From: Ignicoccus pacificus DSM 13166
GTDB taxonomy: Archaea > Thermoproteota > Thermoprotei_A > Sulfolobales > Ignicoccaceae
NCBI GenBank assembly: GCA_025340205.1
Contig: CP006868.1
Location: forward strand, 1,620,001-1,652,000
Direction of reading: 5' to 3'
DNA length: 32,000 bases
The number at the start of each line of letters is the position of its first letter. Within the stretch, counting starts at the first letter, position 1. The position numbers and the translations under genes are program-made. The notes below the pieces were generated by a model, which was not told where the DNA came from, ran no database searches, and was given only the letters and a program-made list of their open reading frames with translations. This document shows, piece by piece, positions 14,041 through 28,155 of this stretch.

Positions 14041-15996
14041 ATGAAGAAGATAGTGTTGGGGCTAACACTACTGCTCATCTTAGCGATAATGGGTGGTTCT
14101 GCATGGGACACTTACGTGTTTATAGAGAGCACGAGACTCTTCGTGAAGGGTATAGATCCTTACGTATTCTATAACGACGTCAGAGCGTACTTACCAGGTC
14201 TAGGTCCCATGTGGCTAACCTATCCGCCGTTACCCTTGTTCCTATGGGCCCCCTTCATAGCCCCCTTAGTTTACTTGAAGATTCCTCTATCATGGCTCTA
14301 TACGTTGGCGGTAAAGATACCTTCAATCATAGCTCTCTTAGCTTCGGTCTATATGATAAAGAAGAAAAACGGTAAGTGGGTTTGGGTACTCTTTAACCCA
14401 ATAGCAATAGCTACCATATTCATTCATGGAATGTTTGACGTTATTGTTGCGTTCTTCTTACTCTTCAGTCTATTAAACATAGATGAAAGGAAGGAATTAA
14501 GTGCAATAAGTTTTGGACTGGCGCTGGCGACTAAGCAGCATGCAGTCCTAGCTGCCCCTGCCTTCTTAGCCTACTTTCTAAAGAAAAAAGATTTTAAAAA
14601 TATGATAAAGTTCTTCCTAATAGCAGCGCTAGCTTTTGCAATGGTAATACTTGCCTTTGAAGCCATCTTTGGATTCAATGACATCAGCTACTTACTCAAG
14701 AGCGTCTTTCTCTTCCATACCAAGAGACCACCTAATGGATTGGGCTTCGGTGGTTTCGCCGTAATGAACTTCTATGCGGATGCCTTCGACCATTACGCCG
14801 GCAACACAGCTGTGGCCTTGTACATGGGAGGTCATGCTTCTGTGCTTTCGAAGATCGTAGATAAGATAGCACTGCTAATGATTCCGGCTGTTCTGTTAGC
14901 ATTAAAGTTAGATCCTTTGACAGCTACATTCCTCATCTACTTGGATTATATAGCACTGAGTTACGTGGGAGCGATCCAGCATATGGTAGTTCCTATGGTG
15001 CTGGCAGGTTTAGTCTTAGCTAAGGATGACAAGTTACGCAAGATATTGCTATATAGCTTCACGCTATACGCCATAGAGCATGTATTGGTATTCTGGGACT
15101 TCTTCCCGATGTTCCTTTCGCCGCTCTTCCTGAAACAGTTTGGTATGTGGATGGCCTACATATCGAGGCTCAGTGACACGTTCTTCCCTTATTGGGCTAT
15201 GCTCTTAAGAGCGTTCGGAGTTGTAGTAACCTCAGCAGCGCTAGCTCTATTACTGATCTTCTTGACTCTCTACTATAAGGAGAAATTTGCGTTTAGGTTC
15301 TCCGGCCTAATAATACCAACCTTATACGTACTCGAAATACTGCTACTCGCGATATTCATGAGTGGCGTGACTGGTCATGTTGCAGTTCACCATCCTTCAC
15401 AAGCAAAGGGTTGGTGTCTTCTAGTACCATGGGAGAACTCAGAGTATCCAGGCTATAGGATGGGTGACTATCTATCTCCCTTTGCTATTCCCACGCCTTT
15501 AGGCTACTACTCTTACGTCTACCCAGTAGCTGAGAAGGTGATTAAAGATCTCAAGGGGAGGTGCAATATCGCAATTCTAGCTAGAGAGGACTTGTTCAGG
15601 GCTTACCAGTACGTAGACTTACTCTCCGTCATAATGAAATACAACATGACCTATGCTTGGGTAATTACATCAAACAAGAATTACCTAGAGGGATTGGGTA
15701 GTGGTCCTTATCAAACCCTCATTCCTACAATACTATCGAACATACCTTATAAGAAAATGTTCAGAATGGGAGGAATCATGGGTTTCATGAATTTGACGTT
15801 CAACTTCTTACCACCGATATCTTATCAAGGATATTACAAGGTACACAACAGGCCCGTGATCTTCGTGTGGAATATAAACCCCAATGATTTAATTACTATT
15901 AAAGAAATGGTTAGGGGCAAAGACGTTGTGATATTACCTTTTAGAGGAAAGATATTGGACATCAAAGCCTTGGGGCTATCCATAATCGGAGGCTAG
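14041..15996 (+). CDS. Large polytopic membrane protein, probably a GT-C-type glycosyltransferase (DUF2029/PMT-like)
   Basis: It has at least 12 hydrophobic segments. An acidic first loop (SAWDTYVFIESTRLFVKGIDPY) follows TM1 as in GT-C enzymes. A C-terminal soluble domain of about 200 aa follows. The ATG at 14041 (MKKIVLGLTLL) is preferred to the GTG at 14011. Confidence 0.45.
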   Translation: MKKIVLGLTLLLILAIMGGSAWDTYVFIESTRLFVKGIDPYVFYNDVRAYLPGLGPMWLTYPPLPLFLWAPFIAPLVYLKIPLSWLYTLAVKIPSIIALLASVYMIKKKNGKWVWVLFNPIAIATIFIHGMFDVIVAFFLLFSLLNIDERKELSAISFGLALATKQHAVLAAPAFLAYFLKKKDFKNMIKFFLIAALAFAMVILAFEAIFGFNDISYLLKSVFLFHTKRPPNGLGFGGFAVMNFYADAFDHYAGNTAVALYMGGHASVLSKIVDKIALLMIPAVLLALKLDPLTATFLIYLDYIALSYVGAIQHMVVPMVLAGLVLAKDDKLRKILLYSFTLYAIEHVLVFWDFFPMFLSPLFLKQFGMWMAYISRLSDTFFPYWAMLLRAFGVVVTSAALALLLIFLTLYYKEKFAFRFSGLIIPTLYVLEILLLAIFMSGVTGHVAVHHPSQAKGWCLLVPWENSEYPGYRMGDYLSPFAIPTPLGYYSYVYPVAEKVIKDLKGRCNIAILAREDLFRAYQYVDLLSVIMKYNMTYAWVITSNKNYLEGLGSGPYQTLIPTILSNIPYKKMFRMGGIMGFMNLTFNFLPPISYQGYYKVHNRPVIFVWNINPNDLITIKEMVRGKDVVILPFRGKILDIKALGLSIIGG

Positions 15997-16732
15997 AGCC
16001 CATCTCCATTTCGTAATCTATTCTTAGAGGTAGGTCCTGCCCGAAGCTAAGGCTTAAGCTCTCAGCTGCTTGGTACGCTCTAGAAGCATCGTACAGATGT
16101 GCCACTGAATACTTAGCCTTCGCCTTTTCATCAACTATTAGCGACAGCAAAGGGTTACCTAAGGAGAGCTGGGCCTCGTAACTCTTGCCCACGTCACTCG
16201 TGAGGATTCTTATCATATCGTTGCTTGGCGTTTCCATAAGTACTTCTTCACCTATTATCTTGGCATCAGCTACTATATCCCTCAAATCCTTGGGCTTCAT
16301 TGTTGCTTCAACAGTCAAGTCAACTTCTGGCTCTTGCAGATCCTCTTCTTCAGCCATCTCTAAAGCACTTACCTTGAATTCTCTCTCAACGCTAGTCTTC
16401 TTATTTATAAACTTAATTATGAAATATGGGGATCCTGTTTCGTAGCTCAATATAACCATATCATCTCTAGTTCCTCTCTTTATCACCTTAGAAACCTCAT
16501 CCGGTATGAGTTTGACTAGCAGTTCATCTTTCATGAGTACGTATTCCTCGAACGATGCCGCCACCATGTTAAATATTACCATTAAGTTGTTGTCACTACT
16601 CATTCTCTTTACATTTATGCCTTCTTGAGTTATCTTCAATGGAAGTTCCTCGAAGAGCTTGAGTATAGGTTGCCATATCTTTTTGAACTTACTAGCATTC
16701 GGGAAAACTGCCTTGAACGTAACTTCATCCAT
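15962..16732 (-). CDS. pcn: DNA polymerase sliding clamp PCNA
   Basis: The product from the ATG at 16732 (MDEVTFKAVFPNASKFKKIWQPI ...) is 256 aa and ends LRLWIAPRL, the typical archaeal PCNA C-terminus. The 68-codon extension in the ORF track is low-complexity and overlaps the divergent gene. Confidence 0.85.
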   Translation of the reverse strand: MDEVTFKAVFPNASKFKKIWQPILKLFEELPLKITQEGINVKRMSSDNNLMVIFNMVAASFEEYVLMKDELLVKLIPDEVSKVIKRGTRDDMVILSYETGSPYFIIKFINKKTSVEREFKVSALEMAEEEDLQEPEVDLTVEATMKPKDLRDIVADAKIIGEEVLMETPSNDMIRILTSDVGKSYEAQLSLGNPLLSLIVDEKAKAKYSVAHLYDASRAYQAAESLSLSFGQDLPLRIDYEMEMGSSLRLWIAPRL

Positions 16733-16762
16733 TTGAGGACCCAATGTAGCTTCGGTGCCCCC

Positions 16763-16771
16763 TTTATTATA
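16763..16771. promoter_or_regulatory. Near-palindromic TATA element shared by pcn (-) and the 16803 gene (+)
   Basis: TTTATTATA lies 31 nt upstream of the pcn ATG (16732) and 32 nt upstream of the TTG at 16803. Confidence 0.4.
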
Positions 16772-16802
16772 CTCTAGAACAGCACGGTAGCTGGGAGAGA
16801 GC

Positions 16803-17189
16803 TTGAAGGAGATAAAGATTCTCGTAGATGGGGGTAAGTATAAGTGGGTGACGCTCCCCAAGGATGAAGCTCTAAAACTCTTGGAGATGATAGAGGGAGA
16901 ACTTGGAAGAAGTCCCAGGGACCTACAAGAGACCATGAGGTACCTGAGGCATTTCGATGAGTTCTACAGGGATATGAAGAAGAGGTTCAAGGATTTCATC
17001 GCACCTTCTCATAGTTTAGATGACATGATAAGAGGGGTAGTTGTGGTTGACAAGGTGGCTCTCAAAAAGGAAGGAGATCAAGACCTAGCTACCATAGTCT
17101 TTGATAGGAGGGTCAAAACTGAGCTCTTGAAGAAGTTGCTAGAAGAATTGGGTTACAAAGTAGAGATAGAGGTGGAGAAGTTATGGTAG
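16803..17189 (+). CDS. Hypothetical protein (128 aa)
   Basis: Composition is charged and protein-like. It uses a TTG start, with the ATG at 16887 as an alternative. Its stop overlaps the start of the next gene (ATGGTAG). I recognise no family. Confidence 0.5.
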   Translation: MKEIKILVDGGKYKWVTLPKDEALKLLEMIEGELGRSPRDLQETMRYLRHFDEFYRDMKKRFKDFIAPSHSLDDMIRGVVVVDKVALKKEGDQDLATIVFDRRVKTELLKKLLEELGYKVEIEVEKLW

Positions 17190-17404
17190 AGGTCGTCAGG
17201 GTGTTTCTTCACACCTATGATGACGACCTCTTTGAGAAGGCGTTAAAGAAGTTGGAGGAACTTGGTTCTGTCAAGATTTCCAAGTCCATGGTAGTACCGA
17301 ACTACGCTTATTCGGAATTACCTCCATCTTCTTTGAGTAAGGCCAAAGAAGTACTCGAGGAATTGGGAATAGAGGACTTTAAGGTGGTACTGGTTAAAAC
17401 CTGA
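17183..17404 (+). CDS. Hypothetical small protein (73 aa)
   Basis: It is translationally coupled to the preceding ORF and contains two LEELG-type motifs. Its 3' 97 nt overlap the convergent ATPase ORF. Confidence 0.45.
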   Translation: MVEVVRVFLHTYDDDLFEKALKKLEELGSVKISKSMVVPNYAYSELPPSSLSKAKEVLEELGIEDFKVVLVKT

Positions 17405-18717
17405 AGGATTTCCTCTACGTCGACCAATATCCTCTTTACGTGACCCTGATGCCTTAGAAACACCTCCCCTCGGGGCAATGCCTTCAATAATCTATATTGT
17501 TCTCCTAGAAGCTTGAAGTATAGGTCCTCATTCTTGATACTATTCGACCTAAAGAGTATCATCGTGTGTGTATTAGTTAATATCGCATCGCTTAAGTCGC
17601 CAAGCTCTTGTGTCGATAAAACCACGCCGACGCCTTTGCTGCGCCCCTCCCTAACTAGCTCTTCCATCAATTCCTCCGAAACAATCCACGCTTCATCTAT
17701 TACGACAAGTCTTCTAAGTCTTTTCGTTGGATTCATTTCTATTATCTCATTTAGAATATTTAACATAATATCGTTTATCTTTTCATTCCTTAATCTAGGA
17801 TCACCATGATACGTTATTACATTTACCTCAAGATCAACCTTCTCCAAAATATACCTTAAATCACCTTTAGGATCAACCACAGTTACGTCAACATCTTCGC
17901 TAAGAGTTTTTAGCCTATATATTAGAGAGGCTAGAAAAGTAGTCTTCCCAGAACCCGTAGAGCCAACTACACCTACATGATGAGTCAAATCATCATATCC
18001 TAGAAATACTGGCTCATTTGTCGATATGTCTTTCCCTATATATATTCCATTGATATCTGATTTCTTGACATGGGGATACACTAGCCCTAGGGATTCAGCG
18101 GTACAAGTGATGTCCTTACTCTTTATTATGTTTACGTTTATCAATCTCTTCAGCTCTCTGTTATTAATTTTCCTCACCTTCGCACCTAAGAGGTTCTCGA
18201 GTACTACTGAGATGAACTGCATCTCAGAGCGCAACTTATTTAGTTCGTTTGAGTATAACAGATACTTCAAGTTAATACTAGCAGGAGGAACTCCTTCGCT
18301 TAGCACCTTATATAACTTCTCAAGTACCCTAAGTTTTCTATCAACCTTTACGTCTGTAGGATCGCTCATCTTCAATACCCTCAAACTAGTTATTTCTCTC
18401 TCAAGTTTCGCTAATATGTCGTTAACTGCAATTGGTTTCTTCACCAATCTTATCTCTAATATCATTCCTGGAGCCGCTCTTTGGAGAGCATAAGAATACT
18501 GCCTTATGGTCTCATAATATTCATCGTAAAGCCTACTCGGATCAATATCTACAACCTCTATTCCTCCGACAAATATCACCTTTTTCCCGTAGACAACCTT
18601 TATTATACCGTCTTCTACATTGAACATTCTCTTTCTCTTTATTCTATTACTTCGTTTACATACTATTAAGGCGACTAGCGTAGGCACCAAGATCTCAAAT
18701 ATCATTACCTCTACCAT
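17308..18717 (-). CDS. Membrane-anchored FtsK/HerA/VirB4-superfamily P-loop ATPase (CedB/TedB-like candidate)
   Basis: N-terminal TM IFEILVPTLVALIVC. Walker A THHVGVVGSTGSGKTTFL (about 17941-17985). Walker B RRLVVIDEAWIV (about 17688-17720). The N-terminal half is about 230 aa and non-P-loop, as in VirB4/HerA-like proteins. Its start overlaps the stop of the upstream membrane-protein gene. Confidence 0.7.
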   Translation of the reverse strand: MVEVMIFEILVPTLVALIVCKRSNRIKRKRMFNVEDGIIKVVYGKKVIFVGGIEVVDIDPSRLYDEYYETIRQYSYALQRAAPGMILEIRLVKKPIAVNDILAKLEREITSLRVLKMSDPTDVKVDRKLRVLEKLYKVLSEGVPPASINLKYLLYSNELNKLRSEMQFISVVLENLLGAKVRKINNRELKRLINVNIIKSKDITCTAESLGLVYPHVKKSDINGIYIGKDISTNEPVFLGYDDLTHHVGVVGSTGSGKTTFLASLIYRLKTLSEDVDVTVVDPKGDLRYILEKVDLEVNVITYHGDPRLRNEKINDIMLNILNEIIEMNPTKRLRRLVVIDEAWIVSEELMEELVREGRSKGVGVVLSTQELGDLSDAILTNTHTMILFRSNSIKNEDLYFKLLGEQYRLLKALPRGEVFLRHQGHVKRILVDVEEILQVLTSTTLKSSIPNSSSTSLALLKEDGGNSE

Positions 18718-20297
18718 AACTTAATACTCAATCTCTTAACGCCGCCAGAGATGAGCGAAGCTATAGCATACGTACTCATCGACATAATTATTATATGTAT
18801 TATTGGGACTGCGGTTATGAAGAACGGCAACAGAAGTATATCAAACTCATTATACTTATACTTACCTAGAACCTCCAGAACTTGAAGCCCTAGTTTATTT
18901 GCTAAGTATCCATACCCAACTATTCTAGGAGGCTCAAACGTCGTCTGTTCTCCAGTAATTGCTACCGTCACGTCCTTCCCTTGAGGCACGTACATCTTCA
19001 AAATCCATACGTCTATTCCGTACCACTCCTTTCTCAAAAGTATCGGATTTCTTGCACCGCTGCTAACGTAAACGCCCATACCCTTGGGATCGAACAATCC
19101 CGAGGTAGAGAGGGTAACGTTACATGCACTCCCTACATGAAAAGAGACAACAAACCTCATCTGTCCACTACTCAACGTCTCGAATTTGGGACCCGAGGTT
19201 ATCTCATAATAGCAATTTTGAGGGAAGTAGAGAACGATACCTGAATCCGGCATGACTATGCCTTTGAATGACATCTTCATTCCGTTCTTAACTGTCATAG
19301 GCTCCAGGCCCATTTTCCTCATATCAATTATACCCTTGTTTATAGTAATTCCTAATATTTGTAAGGTGAAATTTGTGTAAGGCCACGGAGCCCCACCTAG
19401 CATATAGGCTGTGTTAACCTCCCCCTTAGGGCCGGCTGGGTAGATACCACAGATGCCCTTGAGGTCGCACAATTGAAGTACGGAATACGCTAGAGGATGC
19501 CACTTACTGTCGTACAGCATTGCTTGAAAGTAGCTAACATTGCTCATGAAGGAGGGGGATTTTATTCCCAAGAAGCTATTCCATAAATTGGAAAATAGTG
19601 GATCATAGAGGGCAATTAACTTTAGTACCAATATAACTAATGGACCCATTATATAAGTTACCATAGCTAGTGCAATGAGAAATGCTCCTGATGCTTTGGT
19701 TATTCTAAAAGGGATCCCGACCATCACTATTCCCGATGCAAGCATAAAAGGCGCCAAGAGTTCCGATATTCTGCTTACAATGTAGAGAAAAGTCCATGCA
19801 TATATACCGGATTTCAGTGTTGTCAATAGCATGTCCATAAAGGGTTTCGTAAATATATTCGTAAACATATAGAACTTTGAGTATAAGTAGTAAATACCCA
19901 TAATAATAGTGCCTAGAGGAATGTTTTCGTAATTGAACTTGAAAAGCATGTTAATTACTTTTGAAATGTAATTCAAAGCTAGATAAAGTGTTCCTAAGTT
20001 TTTCGCTATTGATAATATCTCATTCACGTAGTCCTCTCTGTTAATACCCATCATTTTGTATGCGTAGCTCATTCCCCATATTATCATAGTAAAGAAAGAT
20101 ACTAGGGCTATGGTAAGAAGACCGTCACTTATTAAGGCAGGGGCCCACTTTTTTATCCCCTTTATTGGAATAGGGAGAGAATATATTAGAACACCTAGGA
20201 AGTACGTAAATACACCTAACGCGGTCGCTAAGCTCAACAGCTGCCATATTATGTCCATCTCACACCCTATTTGATAACGCCCAAAGTTCCCGTACAC
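18711..20297 (-). CDS. Polytopic membrane protein with a large extracellular domain (VirB6/CedA-like candidate)
   Basis: About 6 TM segments lie in the first 235 aa. A beta-rich, Cys-containing soluble region of about 250 aa follows, with N-x-S/T sequons. It ends in a final TM (FDILLLPFFITAVPIIHIIIMSMSTYAIASLI). An alternative start is the ATG at 20258 (MDIIWQLL). Confidence 0.6.
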   Translation of the reverse strand: MYGNFGRYQIGCEMDIIWQLLSLATALGVFTYFLGVLIYSLPIPIKGIKKWAPALISDGLLTIALVSFFTMIIWGMSYAYKMMGINREDYVNEILSIAKNLGTLYLALNYISKVINMLFKFNYENIPLGTIIMGIYYLYSKFYMFTNIFTKPFMDMLLTTLKSGIYAWTFLYIVSRISELLAPFMLASGIVMVGIPFRITKASGAFLIALAMVTYIMGPLVILVLKLIALYDPLFSNLWNSFLGIKSPSFMSNVSYFQAMLYDSKWHPLAYSVLQLCDLKGICGIYPAGPKGEVNTAYMLGGAPWPYTNFTLQILGITINKGIIDMRKMGLEPMTVKNGMKMSFKGIVMPDSGIVLYFPQNCYYEITSGPKFETLSSGQMRFVVSFHVGSACNVTLSTSGLFDPKGMGVYVSSGARNPILLRKEWYGIDVWILKMYVPQGKDVTVAITGEQTTFEPPRIVGYGYLANKLGLQVLEVLGKYKYNEFDILLLPFFITAVPIIHIIIMSMSTYAIASLISGGVKRLSIKLW

Positions 20298-24991: not shown

Positions 24992-25813
24992 GTGAGGTGC
25001 AAGCACAGAAGACTTAGGATCGCAATACCCTCGGACGCCCTTTCAGCAAATCCCTCGTTGAGGGAGAAAACCCTCGTGGCCGGTTACATAGCCAGAGCTG
25101 CCGCAGCCCTCCGAAGCGAGGCAATAGATATCTACATGACTGAGAGCGATGAGGGTTTAGACGTACTCTTAGAAGTCTTAAGATACCTTTCCGAACCCGC
25201 CTATCTTAGGAAAGTATTGATTCCTCTGAAACCTCAATTAAAATTCGCTGGAATACTACCTCCCGTCACAATAAAGCCCCTTAATGAGGGATTTAAAGAT
25301 CAAGAAGATAAGCTATTCTTTAAAGTAGGTGTGATTTTATCGTGTCTCAAGAATAACTATGCTAAGGTCCTAATAGATAAAGATGATGAAGTAACTATTA
25401 AGGTTGAAAAATGTAGAAGATACAAAGAAATACTAGTTGGGATAGATGAAAAGGGTAAACCTAGAAAAGTTTATCCAAGGAGGTATGGAATATGGAGAGG
25501 TCATTACCTAGGCTTTCAAGTCAGAACATTTGAAAATATCTATGATCTTCTAAGATTTTATGATAATAACAACTATAAGAAAGTAGGAACTTCGAGGTAC
25601 GGTGAGTGGCCAGGTAAACTAAGAGAGTTCGTTGGTAATGACGTCGCTCTGATTTATGGCTCTCCCTCGGCTGGCTTGCTTGAACGCTATGGTGAGTTAA
25701 ATCTCGATGCTTTAATTAATATCATACCTTGCCAAGGTGTCAAAACTGTGAGATTGGAAGAGGCTCTCTGGGCTACCGTAGGCTTATACTCTTCATTAGA
25801 ATTTGGACTCTAA
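24992..25813 (+). CDS. SPOUT-superfamily RNA methyltransferase, DUF171 (COG2106) family
   Basis: GTG start. LRIAIPSDALS ... LREKTLVAGYIARAAAALRSEAIDIY is the family N-terminus. GTSRYGEW, LIYGSPSAGL and the C-terminal IIPCQGVKTVRLEEALWATVGL trefoil-knot region are also present. Confidence 0.7.
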   Translation: MRCKHRRLRIAIPSDALSANPSLREKTLVAGYIARAAAALRSEAIDIYMTESDEGLDVLLEVLRYLSEPAYLRKVLIPLKPQLKFAGILPPVTIKPLNEGFKDQEDKLFFKVGVILSCLKNNYAKVLIDKDDEVTIKVEKCRRYKEILVGIDEKGKPRKVYPRRYGIWRGHYLGFQVRTFENIYDLLRFYDNNNYKKVGTSRYGEWPGKLREFVGNDVALIYGSPSAGLLERYGELNLDALINIIPCQGVKTVRLEEALWATVGLYSSLEFGL

Positions 25814-25821
25814 TTGAACCA

Positions 25822-25850
25822 TTGGACACTGTTTGGACAAGGTTTGGACA
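25822..25850 (+). repeat. Three direct TTGGACA boxes at exact 11-bp spacing
   Basis: TTGGACA begins at 25822, 25833 and 25844. The last two are full TTTGGACAA 9-mers. Weaker copies are TTGGAC at 25803 and 25890 and TTGGA at 25878. Confidence 0.9.
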
Positions 25851-26101
25851 AGTCTTGTTTGTCTCTTAGATATTTTGTTGGATTTTTATTTGGACTACTA
25901 AACCCATAGATGCTTCTAGAGGAATCGCAACTTACGTGAAGATTCTATATTTGGTTTTGTATAATATTTGTTTAGAGACTAATAAATAAAGCAAAGATCT
26001 CCAAAGTTTGGTGAAAGTACTAGAGGTAACTATCTACATGAGATGTCCCATGAATTGCCCAACTAAGTGTACTGGAGCTATGCAAGCTTAATTCAAACTG
26101 T

Positions 26102-26119
26102 TGTCCAAGGTTTGTCCAA
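26102..26119 (-). repeat. Two TGTCCAA boxes (reverse complement of TTGGACA) at 11-bp spacing
   Basis: TGTCCAA begins at 26102 and 26113 (TTGTCCAAG and TTGTCCAAA). This array is inverted relative to the one at 25822-25850. Confidence 0.9.
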
Positions 26120-26133
26120 ATCATGGGAATTAC

Positions 26134-27360
26134 TTAGAGATACTTAAGAAGCTCTATGAGACGTTTATCTCCGACACGATATTTGCTTCTCCTTTTTCCC
26201 CTACTACTGGGTGTCTTTTCGACTAATCCTTTTTTCAAGAGAGGCTCTTTCAAGCGGTAATGGACGGTACTCTTAGCTACGTCGTAACCTTGCTTCTTTA
26301 ACCATCTCGTAACATCACTTGGTCCCGCTTCACCGAGTTCAGCTAACGCCTTTAAGATCATTCTGTCGAGTTCGTCTAACTCAAATAAAACGGTAGTCTC
26401 CATAGCCCGTTCAGCCTCTTTTATCGCTAGCTCGATGTGCTTCTTCTGAAGAGAGCCATCCTTAGCAGCGTAGGTTAGTGCTCTCTGTGCAACCTTGATT
26501 GTATCTCTCAATATTGGGAAGTGCTTCCAAATTTCCTCGATCCATTCCTCCTTGAATGGATAGAATGGGTTCTCTGGAGTGGCGAAATCTTTCAATCTTT
26601 TTGAGAATACCTTCTTGGTCTCCTCAGCGTTATAGCCAGGTATCCTAATTTCTATGAACTTACTGACTACGTGTGGAAATCGAGTCCTGAAGGAGTTTAG
26701 ATGGTCAGGTATTATAGTGAAGATGAAGCTAACCTTTCCTTGCCCCTGTAAGAGGTTGTCGAACCAGAAGGCAAGCTGTTCAAATGACTCAGAATAGGCG
26801 AATCCGTCTACCATGAAAATCACTGGTATGTTGCTGTTATCTACTATAAAGCCTAAGGCGGATTTCAAGGTATCTAAATCAACTCTTCCCATTTTCTCAA
26901 ATCTCATAAGCACGTTTTCTACTACTTGAGTTATATACTTGAAGAACTTTTCATACTCTTGGTTCATCCCTACGAAGTATATCCAGCCCGGCTTCTTGAA
27001 ACCCTTTTCAAGACCTTTGAGTAGATTATATAAGAATTTCTGAGGGTTATCGTCGTAGACGGTCTTTACTACTATGGGAATTAGCTTCTTCATTGATGCT
27101 TCTAAGGGTGACCGCGGGTAAGGGATATCCATTTCCTTTCTCCAGAAATTCAAGAACGTAGACTTGCCTAGACCGTAGCTTCCAACTACGAAGACTCTGC
27201 TATTGCCACCTTCCTTCACTATTTTCTCATATACTAGCTTTTCGAAGAGGTTATCAGGTTCGTAGCGCTTGACGTAGAACCGCAGCATTTCGCCGTCCAG
27301 CGGAGCCGGCTCGAACCTCCGTATCAGTTCGTAGAAGTCGGGCGGCACGCCACTCTCCAC
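26134..27360 (-). CDS. Divergent Orc1/Cdc6-like AAA+ ATPase with a C-terminal winged helix
   Basis: Walker A VFVVGSYGLGKSTFL (about 27158-27196). Degenerate Walker B VIFMVDGF. IEIRIPGYNAEETKKVFSKRL and ILRDTIKVAQRALTYAAKDG resemble the Orc1/Cdc6 box VII and lid. The terminal wHTH is LDRMILKALAELGEAGPSDVTRWLKKQGYDVAKSTVHYRLKEPLLKKGLVEK. A GTG at 27360 lies 22 nt downstream of a TTTTTACA box. The ORF-track ATG at 27486 would add 42 codons that run through the repeat cluster. Confidence 0.6.
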   Translation of the reverse strand: MESGVPPDFYELIRRFEPAPLDGEMLRFYVKRYEPDNLFEKLVYEKIVKEGGNSRVFVVGSYGLGKSTFLNFWRKEMDIPYPRSPLEASMKKLIPIVVKTVYDDNPQKFLYNLLKGLEKGFKKPGWIYFVGMNQEYEKFFKYITQVVENVLMRFEKMGRVDLDTLKSALGFIVDNSNIPVIFMVDGFAYSESFEQLAFWFDNLLQGQGKVSFIFTIIPDHLNSFRTRFPHVVSKFIEIRIPGYNAEETKKVFSKRLKDFATPENPFYPFKEEWIEEIWKHFPILRDTIKVAQRALTYAAKDGSLQKKHIELAIKEAERAMETTVLFELDELDRMILKALAELGEAGPSDVTRWLKKQGYDVAKSTVHYRLKEPLLKKGLVEKTPSSRGKRRSKYRVGDKRLIELLKYL

Positions 27361-27373
27361 TCCCCTACTAGTG

Positions 27374-27525
27374 TGTCCAAATGTAAAAACAGCGGTAACC
27401 CTTGAGTTGGATAATAGGACATCTATCAGTGGTTGGACTAAGTGATAATGTAGTACAAATGGTCCAGATGTCCATTGGACGAACAAACTAGTTGTACCGA
27501 GATAATTAGTTGTCCAAGTGTCCTG
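27374..27525. repeat. Cluster of TTGGACA/TGTCCAA boxes in both orientations in the divergent promoter region
   Basis: TGTCCAA at 27374. TTGGATA at 27407. TTGGACT at 27433. The palindrome GTCCATTGGAC at 27470-27480. TGTCCAA at 27511. TGTCCT at 27519. TATA-like elements lie at 27382-27389 (-) and 27502-27508 (+). Confidence 0.85.
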
Positions 27526-27534
27526 CAGGAGTGG

Positions 27535-28155
27535 GTGCTACTCGAGTTGCCCGCTCGTCCCAAGATAATCACAAAAGTACTTGAATCAATCTATCCTCTT
27601 CATGACGATGTTGTCGCTATAAAGTTCATTGAAAGAGGTTATTATAAGAGGGCATTAGAACTGTTAGGTAATTGGAAAAGGATACTAGAGGTAGGATGTG
27701 GTACTGGAAGACTGTTAGAGGTGGCTAGAGAGAACGGGAAACCCTTGTGGGGTCTTGATATATCACTGAAGTTCCTAAAAATTTCGAAAGAAAGGTTCAA
27801 GGATTATCCCGCAGACTTCGTCTACGGAACTGCTACAAACCTACCTTTTCGCTCCAACTCCTTTGATGGAGTTCTAACATTCACCATGATTCATCACTTG
27901 ACTAAGGAGGAAAAAATACAAATGATAGAGGAGATAGCCAAGCTCTCCGATAAGTATGCCTTTGGAGAAGTAGGTAAGAGGATATGCTGGAGTGCTATTC
28001 TACTAAAGATAATAGGGTCTAAGGACTTGATATCAAAGGAGTTATTCAAGAAGGCTGGAATGAAAATAGAGAGATGGGAAGATCCTAAGGGATTTTGTTT
28101 GATCATTGGGTTGGCGAGAAGATTAAGTGGCCCGGTACGCCGAGATGCACGGTAG
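27535..28155 (+). CDS. Class I SAM-dependent methyltransferase (Methyltransf_11-like)
   Basis: Motif I is ILEVGCGTGRLLE, and post-I and motif II are LDIS ... FDGVLTFTMIHHL. A GTG at 27535 lies 27 nt downstream of ATAATTA. The ORF-track TTG at 27475 lies inside the repeat palindrome. Confidence 0.7.
   Translation: MLLELPARPKIITKVLESIYPLHDDVVAIKFIERGYYKRALELLGNWKRILEVGCGTGRLLEVARENGKPLWGLDISLKFLKISKERFKDYPADFVYGTATNLPFRSNSFDGVLTFTMIHHLTKEEKIQMIEEIAKLSDKYAFGEVGKRICWSAILLKIIGSKDLISKELFKKAGMKIERWEDPKGFCLIIGLARRLSGPVRRDAR

Follow-up and report, generated by a model that had tools for sequence, protein, structure and literature searches.

The analyzed DNA, a 32,000-nucleotide stretch of Ignicoccus pacificus DSM 13166 (contig CP006868.1, positions 1,620,001 to 1,652,000; hereafter the window), contains a 320-bp non-coding island that is probably a chromosomal replication origin. 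Its dedicated initiator would be encoded by IPA_09595, a gene that ends 14 nt away from the boxes. This reading is preferred because the island has inverted, phased arms made of a short box and a central motif of the type named ucm, because the protein is predicted to have an Orc1/Cdc6 fold, because the ensemble was retained at a locus with entirely different neighbors (L003), and because of the co-variation of the box among remote relatives. A preliminary description had proposed an unrecognized or secondary archaeal origin at this site, and the proposal gained in silico support from the conservation, the phasing, the ucm, and the Orc1/Cdc6 fold. The conserved module consists of promoter boxes, the gene for the protein with the Orc1/Cdc6 fold, a proximal array, an AT-rich centre with the ucm, and an inverted distal array. 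New are the box itself, its dense 11-bp phasing with an outside-in grading, and a putative initiator family that is invisible to curated Orc1/Cdc6 models.

Phased boxes and a central ucm in the island

The list of open reading frames (ORFs) verified that two convergent genes flank the island and end 320 bp apart, at positions 25813 and 26134. The boxes described previously were re-read and were found to be exact, i.e., TTGGACA starts at 25822, 25833, and 25844 of the plus strand in steps of 11 bp, and its reverse complement TGTCCAA starts at 26102 and 26113. The 7-mer TTGGACA has 11 copies in the 32 kb, compared to 3.0 +/- 1.8 in dinucleotide shuffles, and 0 of 100 shuffles reached 11. Five of the 11 copies fall within the 320-bp island. 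A repeat search revealed two inverted arms (25832-25851 and 26101-26120) of 20 nt each, which are 85% complementary and have 249 nt between them. In the distal arm seven box starts were found (25822, 25833, 25844, 25855, 25866, 25878, and 25890, with steps of 11, 11, 11, 11, 12, and 12 nt), and one more copy, the eighth, starts at 25803 and shares bases with the stop codon of the left gene. The match of the distal boxes to the consensus was best at the outer end and became poorer toward the centre. The degenerate copies that had been described as scattered are indeed present, but most of them are in a phase of 11-12 nt. For one of them, TGTCCCA, the start had to be corrected from 26045 to 26044. 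The AT-richness of the island and its core was also verified. The GC content of the island was 0.35 versus 0.44 for the window, the stretch 25896-25997 had 29% GC, and the lowest 40-nt stretch (17% GC) was located around 25941-25990. The features of the island and the adjacent gene are as follows:

25803-25896, plus strand: distal arm, boxes of the type nTTTGGACAAg aimed at the centre (sequence reading, exact matches, and position weight matrix)
25822, 25833, and 25844, plus strand: distal strong boxes, with a further copy at 25803
25855 (TTGTTT), 25866 (TTAGAT), 25878 (TTGGAT), and 25890 (TTGGAC), plus strand: distal weaker in-phase boxes
25897-26043, no strand: AT-rich centre, candidate DNA unwinding element, unconserved except for a 10-mer
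25955-25965, minus strand: ucm-like motif ATTATACAAAA, core TTATACAAAA invariant in ten islands
26044-26120, minus strand: proximal arm, begins 14 nt past the stop codon of the initiator-like gene
26119-26113 and 26108-26102, minus strand: proximal strong boxes
about 26096 (TTGAAT), about 26085 (TTGCAT), and 26050-26044 (TGGGACA), minus strand: proximal weaker in-phase boxes
26134-27360, minus strand: candidate initiator gene IPA_09595, "hypothetical protein" at NCBI, 100% identity to the Ignicoccus pacificus DSM 13166 entry

Homologues of the protein encoded at 26134-27360 formed ten clusters at 90% identity among 5.8 billion proteins. All ten clusters were from Ignicoccus or Ignicoccus-like organisms, and the protein identities ranged from 62% to 100%. 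The DNA around nine homologues was fetched, and the loci of 13 kb each were labelled L001-L010. In every locus a gap of 293-326 bp is present 3' of the candidate initiator gene. In eight loci the neighbors are syntenic with the window. In L003 every neighboring gene differs and the gene that follows has the same orientation. Nevertheless, the promoter boxes, the gene, and the island were all kept, and the adjacency of array and candidate initiator gene was found in 10/10 loci. On the gene side of the gap, two strong TTGGAC boxes with a distance of 11 nt are located 4-22 nt past the stop codon in every locus, followed by weaker in-phase copies. At the far end all loci have three to six GTCCAA boxes, 11-12 nt apart, and the distal-arm consensus of the ten loci ends with ...TCCAAnnCTTGTCCAAAnCTTGTCCAAACnCTGTCCAAA in gene orientation. 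Inverted repeats on both sides of the putative unwinding region were kept in ten loci, and by its composition the element between them is AT-rich. In 10/10 loci the GC content of the island was 5-9 points under the locus mean, and the lowest 40-nt windows had 17-28% GC. In the alignment of the ten gaps the mean column identity was 51%, yet the box cores and TTATACAAAA were invariant, while apart from this 10-mer neither the sequence nor the length of the centre was conserved.

Nine non-redundant islands were used for the statistics of phasing and orientation. Pairs of TGGA or TCCA with an exact spacing of 11 nt were found 29 times, compared to 0.07 in shuffles. Successive boxes on the same strand were separated by 11 nt in 29 of 49 cases and by 12 nt in five, and the remaining distances were mostly near multiples. 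The orientation was also highly biased, i.e., TTGGA was found 28 times on the gene side of the ucm and never on the far side, while TCCAA was found once and 40 times, respectively (Fisher test, 1.7e-18). From 51 exact boxes the consensus nTTTGGACAAg was obtained. It is neither a canonical origin recognition box (ORB) nor a mini-ORB, in agreement with the preliminary description, which had called the box non-canonical. The TGGA core alone is common ground with the ORB dyad.

The sole conserved block of the centre, the 10-mer TTATACAAAA, is the core of a motif that had escaped the first reading of the sequence, ATTATACAAAA. In the window 10/11 bases are identical to the ucm of Sulfolobus oriC1, ATTATACAAAC, and, as judged from its sequence, the central motif is a ucm, which is located within the candidate unwinding element. 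The sequence TTATACAAA has a single occurrence in the 32 kb, namely the island copy, and also the ucm 11-mer with at most one mismatch gave a single match. In the window and the loci together (about 157 kb), 13 copies of the motif were inside islands and one was outside, which corresponds to a roughly 600-fold enrichment in the islands.

The ucm was reportedly first described by Robinson and Bell in 2007. In Sulfolobus islandicus oriC1 it is the 11-bp sequence ATTATACAAAC, which is contained in the oligonucleotide UCM30TOP, and its site within the unwinding element is flanked by ORB2 and ORB3, which are inverted (Dhanaraju et al. 2025, PMC12141716). The firing of oriC1 depends on the ucm, which is bound by the ucm-binding protein (UBP) and recurs in each of the three Sulfolobus origins as well as in the two origins of Aeropyrum pernix, and the ubp gene occurs in Sulfolobales and Desulfurococcales (PMC12141716). 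The same plan, an AT-rich central ucm amid ORBs, has been described for the S. islandicus origins (PMC3718332). A second ucm-like copy was observed in the distal arm near the inner boxes in two loci, i.e., TTATACAAA at about 7459-7467 of L001 (I. islandicus) and TATACAAA at about 7485-7492 of L007. In I. islandicus DSM 13165 the counterpart of the island is located at about 1,341,015-1,341,339 of CP006867.1.

The neighboring gene IPA_09595 and its relatives

IPA_09595 encodes a protein with an AAA+ ATPase domain, a lid, and a C-terminal single winged helix. The window protein has GSYGLGKST as its Walker A motif, and all orthologues share GSYGLGK[ST]T. R255 and R285 are conserved. Further motifs of IPA_09595 are IRIPGYNAEE..KR and ILRDTIKVAQRAL, and the orthologue alignment also has IRIPGY..E..K.VF..R and ILRD.IKVAQRAL. 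The putative recognition helix AKSTVHYR (AKST.HYR) is invariant in the Ignicoccus group, and the mean column identity of the ten orthologues is 82%.

A first structural model, which was based on the ten close orthologues, had a predicted local distance difference test score (pLDDT) of 67 and low template modelling (TM) scores, and its best Foldseek matches were already archaeal Orc1/Cdc6 proteins. An AlphaFold2 model from a 21-sequence alignment, which included remote relatives, had a pLDDT of 88.4 and a predicted TM-score of 0.76. With this model the top 28 Foldseek matches in the PDB were all Orc1, ORC, or Cdc6, and the first non-ORC match had rank 29. The TM-scores were 0.58/0.64 over 415 columns for the DNA-bound Orc1-1 of S. 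solfataricus (2qby_A) and 0.56/0.59 for ORC1 of A. pernix (2v1u_A). In the predicted model the AAA+ base, the lid, and the winged helix are superposable on Orc1/Cdc6 structures, and the AAA+/winged-helix neighbor to which the preliminary description had pointed has acquired a more specific predicted fold. A profile of the wider family matched S. solfataricus Orc1-1 in one full-length stretch (E=7.8e-15), and the alignment paired Walker A, Walker B, I.FPPYNAEE..KR (IRIPGYNAEE..KR in Ignicoccus), sensor-2, and the winged helix.

The family models gave a different picture. In Pfam only sub-threshold matches to KAP_NTPase, NACHT, AAA_22, and winged-helix families were obtained with the window protein and the ten orthologues, and Cdc6-ORC-like_ATPase_lid was matched by 1/10 members with E=0.2. 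In NCBIfam, RuvB and TIGR02928 (orc1/cdc6) were far under the cut-offs, and the curated Orc1/Cdc6 family thresholds were not reached. A hidden Markov model (HMM) of the ten orthologues had no Orc1/Cdc6 match among the PDB sequences, and among 1.84 billion representatives it found only 17 proteins at E<1e-3. IPA_09595 is Orc1/Cdc6-like in its predicted fold, not a demonstrated member of the family, and it is probably Orc1/Cdc6-like by descent. Its identification as WhiP, a tandem winged-helix protein without ATPase, was ruled out by the P-loop AAA+ domain and the single winged helix.

Next, the remote relatives were considered. The putative recognition helix differs among them, while it is invariant within the Ignicoccus group, and two of their genes are accompanied by repeats of other sequences. 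The respective contigs, L130 and L133, are short, and the boxes are known for the stretches flanking the genes. The L130 relative has 27% identity, and six exact copies of TTCGAGT/ACTCGAA are all located in the promoter or around or just past the stop codon; TCGAGT was observed 9 times versus 1.4 expected. A metagenome scan yielded one new remote locus, L133, from a Korarchaeota/Thermoproteota metagenome-assembled genome. In this case GTTCGG was observed 9 times versus 1.9 expected, and all copies are within 170 nt upstream of the start or downstream of the stop codon. The repeats are located at 1700-1770 and 2818-2865 in L130, and those of the type (T)GTTCGG at 1540-1700 and 2880-3225 in L133, where they are arranged around an AT-rich patch that directly precedes the gene. 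The L130 relative is preceded by a 690-bp gap, in which apparently decayed insertion-sequence remnants were seen by eye at 1130-1420, i.e., a cysteine-rich stretch resembling a zinc finger and a reading frame with a helix-turn-helix of the excisionase or MerR type. The remote relatives are annotated as winged-helix proteins only.

The distribution of the family is patchy. No homologue from I. hospitalis was found in the search of 5.8 billion proteins or in the HMM search of 1.84 billion representatives, and no relatives of IPA_09595 were found on viral contigs or plasmids. According to the genome paper of I. hospitalis, its canonical Orc1/Cdc6 genes do not co-localize with the predicted origin. 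A C-terminal fragment with 41% identity was detected at 42-2019 of L131, a 2.3-kb AT-rich metagenome contig, on which a small ORF of the zinc-ribbon type and the gene of a serine resolvase come next. No TTGGACA array was found after the fragment, and its surroundings hint at a relative that is mobile or extrachromosomal. An extrachromosomal replicon is the probable source of the module, which would serve as an accessory or secondary origin. Such a history would fit the patchy distribution, the lack of a match in I. hospitalis, the other context in L003, and the resolvase gene beside the 41% fragment.

Boxes in the promoter region

Additional boxes, which were absent from the first reading, were found upstream of IPA_09595:

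27374-27517, no strand: promoter-region boxes, four TTGGAC copies
27380-27375, minus strand: TTGGAC box directly downstream of the TATA-like element GTTTTTACAT at 27390-27381
27433-27438 and 27475-27480, plus strand, and 27517-27512, minus strand: further promoter boxes

Boxes at this position were a feature of all loci. Of the TTGGACA copies outside the islands, 22/42 were within about 190 nt upstream of the gene (window and L001-L010, every locus, including L003), and an inverted pair TTGGAC-N13-16-GTCCAA was found further upstream in several loci. Elsewhere in the flanking sequence (about 157 kb), the density was about 0.13 per kb, and chance alone would give about 0.09 per kb. The preliminary description had considered that the box could be a common promoter motif, but this was not seen in the about 157 kb analyzed. 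The promoter boxes are probably autoregulatory operators. A protein bound to the box below the TATA-like element would be expected to block transcription initiation and would let the protein repress its own gene, and the same would apply to the inverted pair.

The outermost box (27517-27512) adjoins a conserved 8-bp palindrome, CCTGCAGG, at 27519-27526. It is located at about -165 nt of the gene in L001, L003, L004, and L006-L010. In every locus its distance to the outermost upstream TTGGAC is 0-5 nt, and in L003 it is inside a different upstream ORF. The palindrome may mark the edge of the module. On the other side of the promoter region, the methyltransferase ORF (27475-28155, plus strand, 226 aa) has a TTG start and is 18-36 codons longer than its orthologues (190-208 aa), and its first codons overlap two TTGGAC boxes. 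Translation probably begins at a more downstream codon, in which case the divergent promoter region would span about 190 bp.

Proposed mechanism, rival explanations and known origins

Under the origin reading, IPA_09595 would bind the TTTGGACAAG arrays sequence-specifically. The winged helix would read the TTGGACA box, recognition helix AKSTVHYR and box both being invariant. The best-matching outer boxes would nucleate binding, and the weaker inner boxes, which share one helix face owing to their 11-bp steps, would subsequently be occupied by ATP-bound protomers. Two opposed oligomers would thereby grow toward each other and meet at the AT-rich centre. At this site the MCM helicase and a UBP-like protein that binds the ucm would act as at Sulfolobus oriC1, and the duplex would open. 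A more far-reaching version is put forward tentatively, with somewhat more doubt than trust: an orphan, lineage-specific descendant of Orc1/Cdc6 might polymerize on phased arrays like those of iterons or DnaA, instead of on ORBs, and fire an Ignicoccus origin, and ucm and UBP might be a portable module for three or more initiator types that are unrelated or strongly diverged, namely Orc1, WhiP, and this family. If this was true, it would mean repeated capture of extrachromosomal replicons in Crenarchaeota and a convergence on the logic of bacterial origins.

Several points weigh against the origin reading. The Walker B motif of the protein is FMVDGF, and the pattern hhhhDGF with the invariant D185 lacks the catalytic glutamate. 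The curated Orc1/Cdc6 models fail, and TIGR02928 gave an E value of about 0.01 and 14.8 bits versus a cut-off of 181.3. The significance of the wider-family match hinges on the added remote relatives and could include a drift toward Orc1/Cdc6, and the Ignicoccus-only profile matched Orc1-1 with an HHalign probability of 62% and with Walker B out of register. The ucm alone is not diagnostic for an origin, since UBP occupies more than 300 ucm sites in Sulfolobus (PMC12141716). The GC skew over the window tracks the gene orientation and is uninformative on an origin, and the orientation of the flanking genes, which converge on the island, also counts against it. Lastly, the apparent specificity of box and ucm applies to the window and the loci, about 157 kb, not to whole genomes. 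The pattern GTCCAA-N5-GTCCAA-N5-GTCCAA was searched in genome contigs and gave at least 119 stretches, mostly bacterial, with no Ignicoccus locus among the matches listed, and this result is uninformative on uniqueness.

A transcription-factor operator array without a role in replication is an unlikely explanation, but it is the most serious rival. The AAA+/winged-helix protein would then be an ATP-dependent regulator, the island would be a second high-capacity site that could titrate or loop, and the ucm would be one of many sites of a nucleoid protein. It agrees with a regulator that the boxes overlap the core promoter of the gene in every locus, that the sub-threshold matches are to KAP, NACHT, AAA_22, and MarR-type domains, that the remote relatives are annotated only as winged-helix proteins, and that most ucm sites in Sulfolobus are not at origins. 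However, the large array sits between two 3' ends, where there is no promoter, and it was kept in L003 although the downstream gene differs. In addition, inverted arms around an AT-rich centre with a single invariant ucm are the plan of an origin, the fold matched Orc1/ORC/Cdc6 ahead of any regulator, and autoregulatory sites are equally compatible with an initiator. The same anatomy could also belong to a silent relic of an integrated plasmid or virus replicon that no longer fires, which we regard as somewhat less probable still. The patchy distribution (10 orthologues in the 5.8 billion proteins searched, with I. hospitalis absent), the different context in L003, and the 41%-identical fragment that adjoins a resolvase gene would all be in line with a relic, but boxes, phase, and ucm are intact at 62% protein identity while the surrounding DNA is scrambled, and the protein is strongly conserved, with a mean column identity of 82%. 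Moreover, there is no integrase, tRNA, or other element gene beside the module in the syntenic loci, and the searches of viral contigs and plasmids yielded no relatives.

A centromere-like or chromosome-organizing site, at which the arrays would load the winged-helix ATPase for segregation or boundary marking, is improbable. Phased short repeats beside a winged-helix gene also fit archaeal and plasmid partition sites, and the winged-helix part of the family profile weakly matched AspA of pNOB8. The ATPase, however, is not ParA- or SegA-like and matched Orc1/Cdc6 over its full length, and the module has no partner gene. An AT-rich centre with a ucm is not known as a requirement of partition sites. 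Hardly to be expected at all is a small non-coding RNA gene, or a miniature inverted-repeat transposable element (MITE) with the arms as terminal repeats, for which only the long gap between convergent genes with its bordering 20-nt inverted repeats speaks. For the island there was no Rfam match at the gathering score or at E<=1 and no tRNA, RNAalifold paired only arm with arm, with a covariation term of +0.53, which gives no support by covariation, and an unstructured centre, and the GC content is 35% in a hyperthermophile. A MITE is contradicted by the finding that neither the window nor any of the ten 13-kb loci has a further copy, by the structure of the arms as tandem 11-bp arrays, and by the fixed position beside one gene in ten genomes.

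Returning to the origin reading, the island was compared with known systems. As in oriC1 and oriC2 of Sulfolobus and oriC1 of A. pernix, inverted initiator repeats surround an AT-rich unwinding element with a ucm, and the site adjoins the gene of an AAA+/winged-helix protein with the same initiator fold. In contrast to oriC1 and oriC2, the box is a 7-9-bp TTGGACA(A) and not an ORB or mini-ORB dyad, each arm has about seven boxes in a tight 11-bp phase instead of a few well-separated ORBs, the island is downstream of the gene and not upstream, and the protein is unrecognized by the curated Orc1/Cdc6 models. The closest system in plan is oriC3 of Sulfolobus, while the Orc1-1 and Orc1-3 origins are closest in protein fold. 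oriC3 is intergenic and located immediately downstream of whiP, it has WhiP sites at its boundaries and no ORBs, and an extrachromosomal element has been suggested as its source. Because oriC3 is also without ORBs, the ORB is not universal. oriC3 with WhiP and A. pernix oriC2 share with the island the location downstream of a lineage-restricted initiator gene, the sites at the boundaries, the ucm inside, and the lack of ORBs and mini-ORBs. However, WhiP is a tandem winged-helix, Cdt1-like protein without ATPase, whereas IPA_09595 is an AAA+ protein with a single winged helix.

By analogy, the island also resembles the DnaA-box arrays of bacterial oriC and iteron plasmids, in which boxes are about one helical turn apart and form two opposed arrays. 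At DnaA and iteron origins, strong outer and weaker inner sites steer an AAA+ oligomer to the AT-rich element, and the initiator represses its own promoter via inverted boxes. They belong to another domain of life and involve another protein family, the arrays of the island flank the unwinding element on both sides, and the likeness is one of sequence layout. Haloarchaeal orc-adjacent accessory origins are a further parallel, with multiple lineage-variable replicator-initiator pairs that depend on the neighboring gene and are often mobile between contexts, but in that case the initiators are recognizable Orc1/Cdc6 proteins and the repeats are ORB-like.

A literature search found no paper in which Ignicoccus origins were mapped. 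Among archaea in general, the species with known origins number only about a dozen. The locus is a testable candidate origin with a named candidate initiator that is now annotated as hypothetical. If the origin fires, the archaeal initiator types would extend beyond recognizable Orc1/Cdc6 and WhiP, and the ucm would be extended to another lineage and paired with another initiator. The origin would also be an archaeal case of tightly phased arrays of graded affinity, a design that is best understood for DnaA and plasmid Rep proteins, and loci of this kind would prove to be overlooked by prediction tools that depend on orc/cdc6 annotation and ORB motifs.

Two further observations were made elsewhere in the window. 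A HerA/FtsK-like ATPase (17308-18717, minus strand; DUF87, AAA_10, FtsK_SpoIIIE) overlaps a multi-pass membrane protein of 528 aa (18711-20297, minus strand), the orthologues of which carry Pfam CedA1 in the related loci. Together, the two genes at 17308-20297 look like a Ced-type crenarchaeal DNA-import system. The PCNA gene (15955-16936) is listed as an ORF of 324 aa, of which the N-terminal extension is probably untranslated, and a single TTGGACA at 15955-15961, which may be due to chance, adjoins its stop codon.

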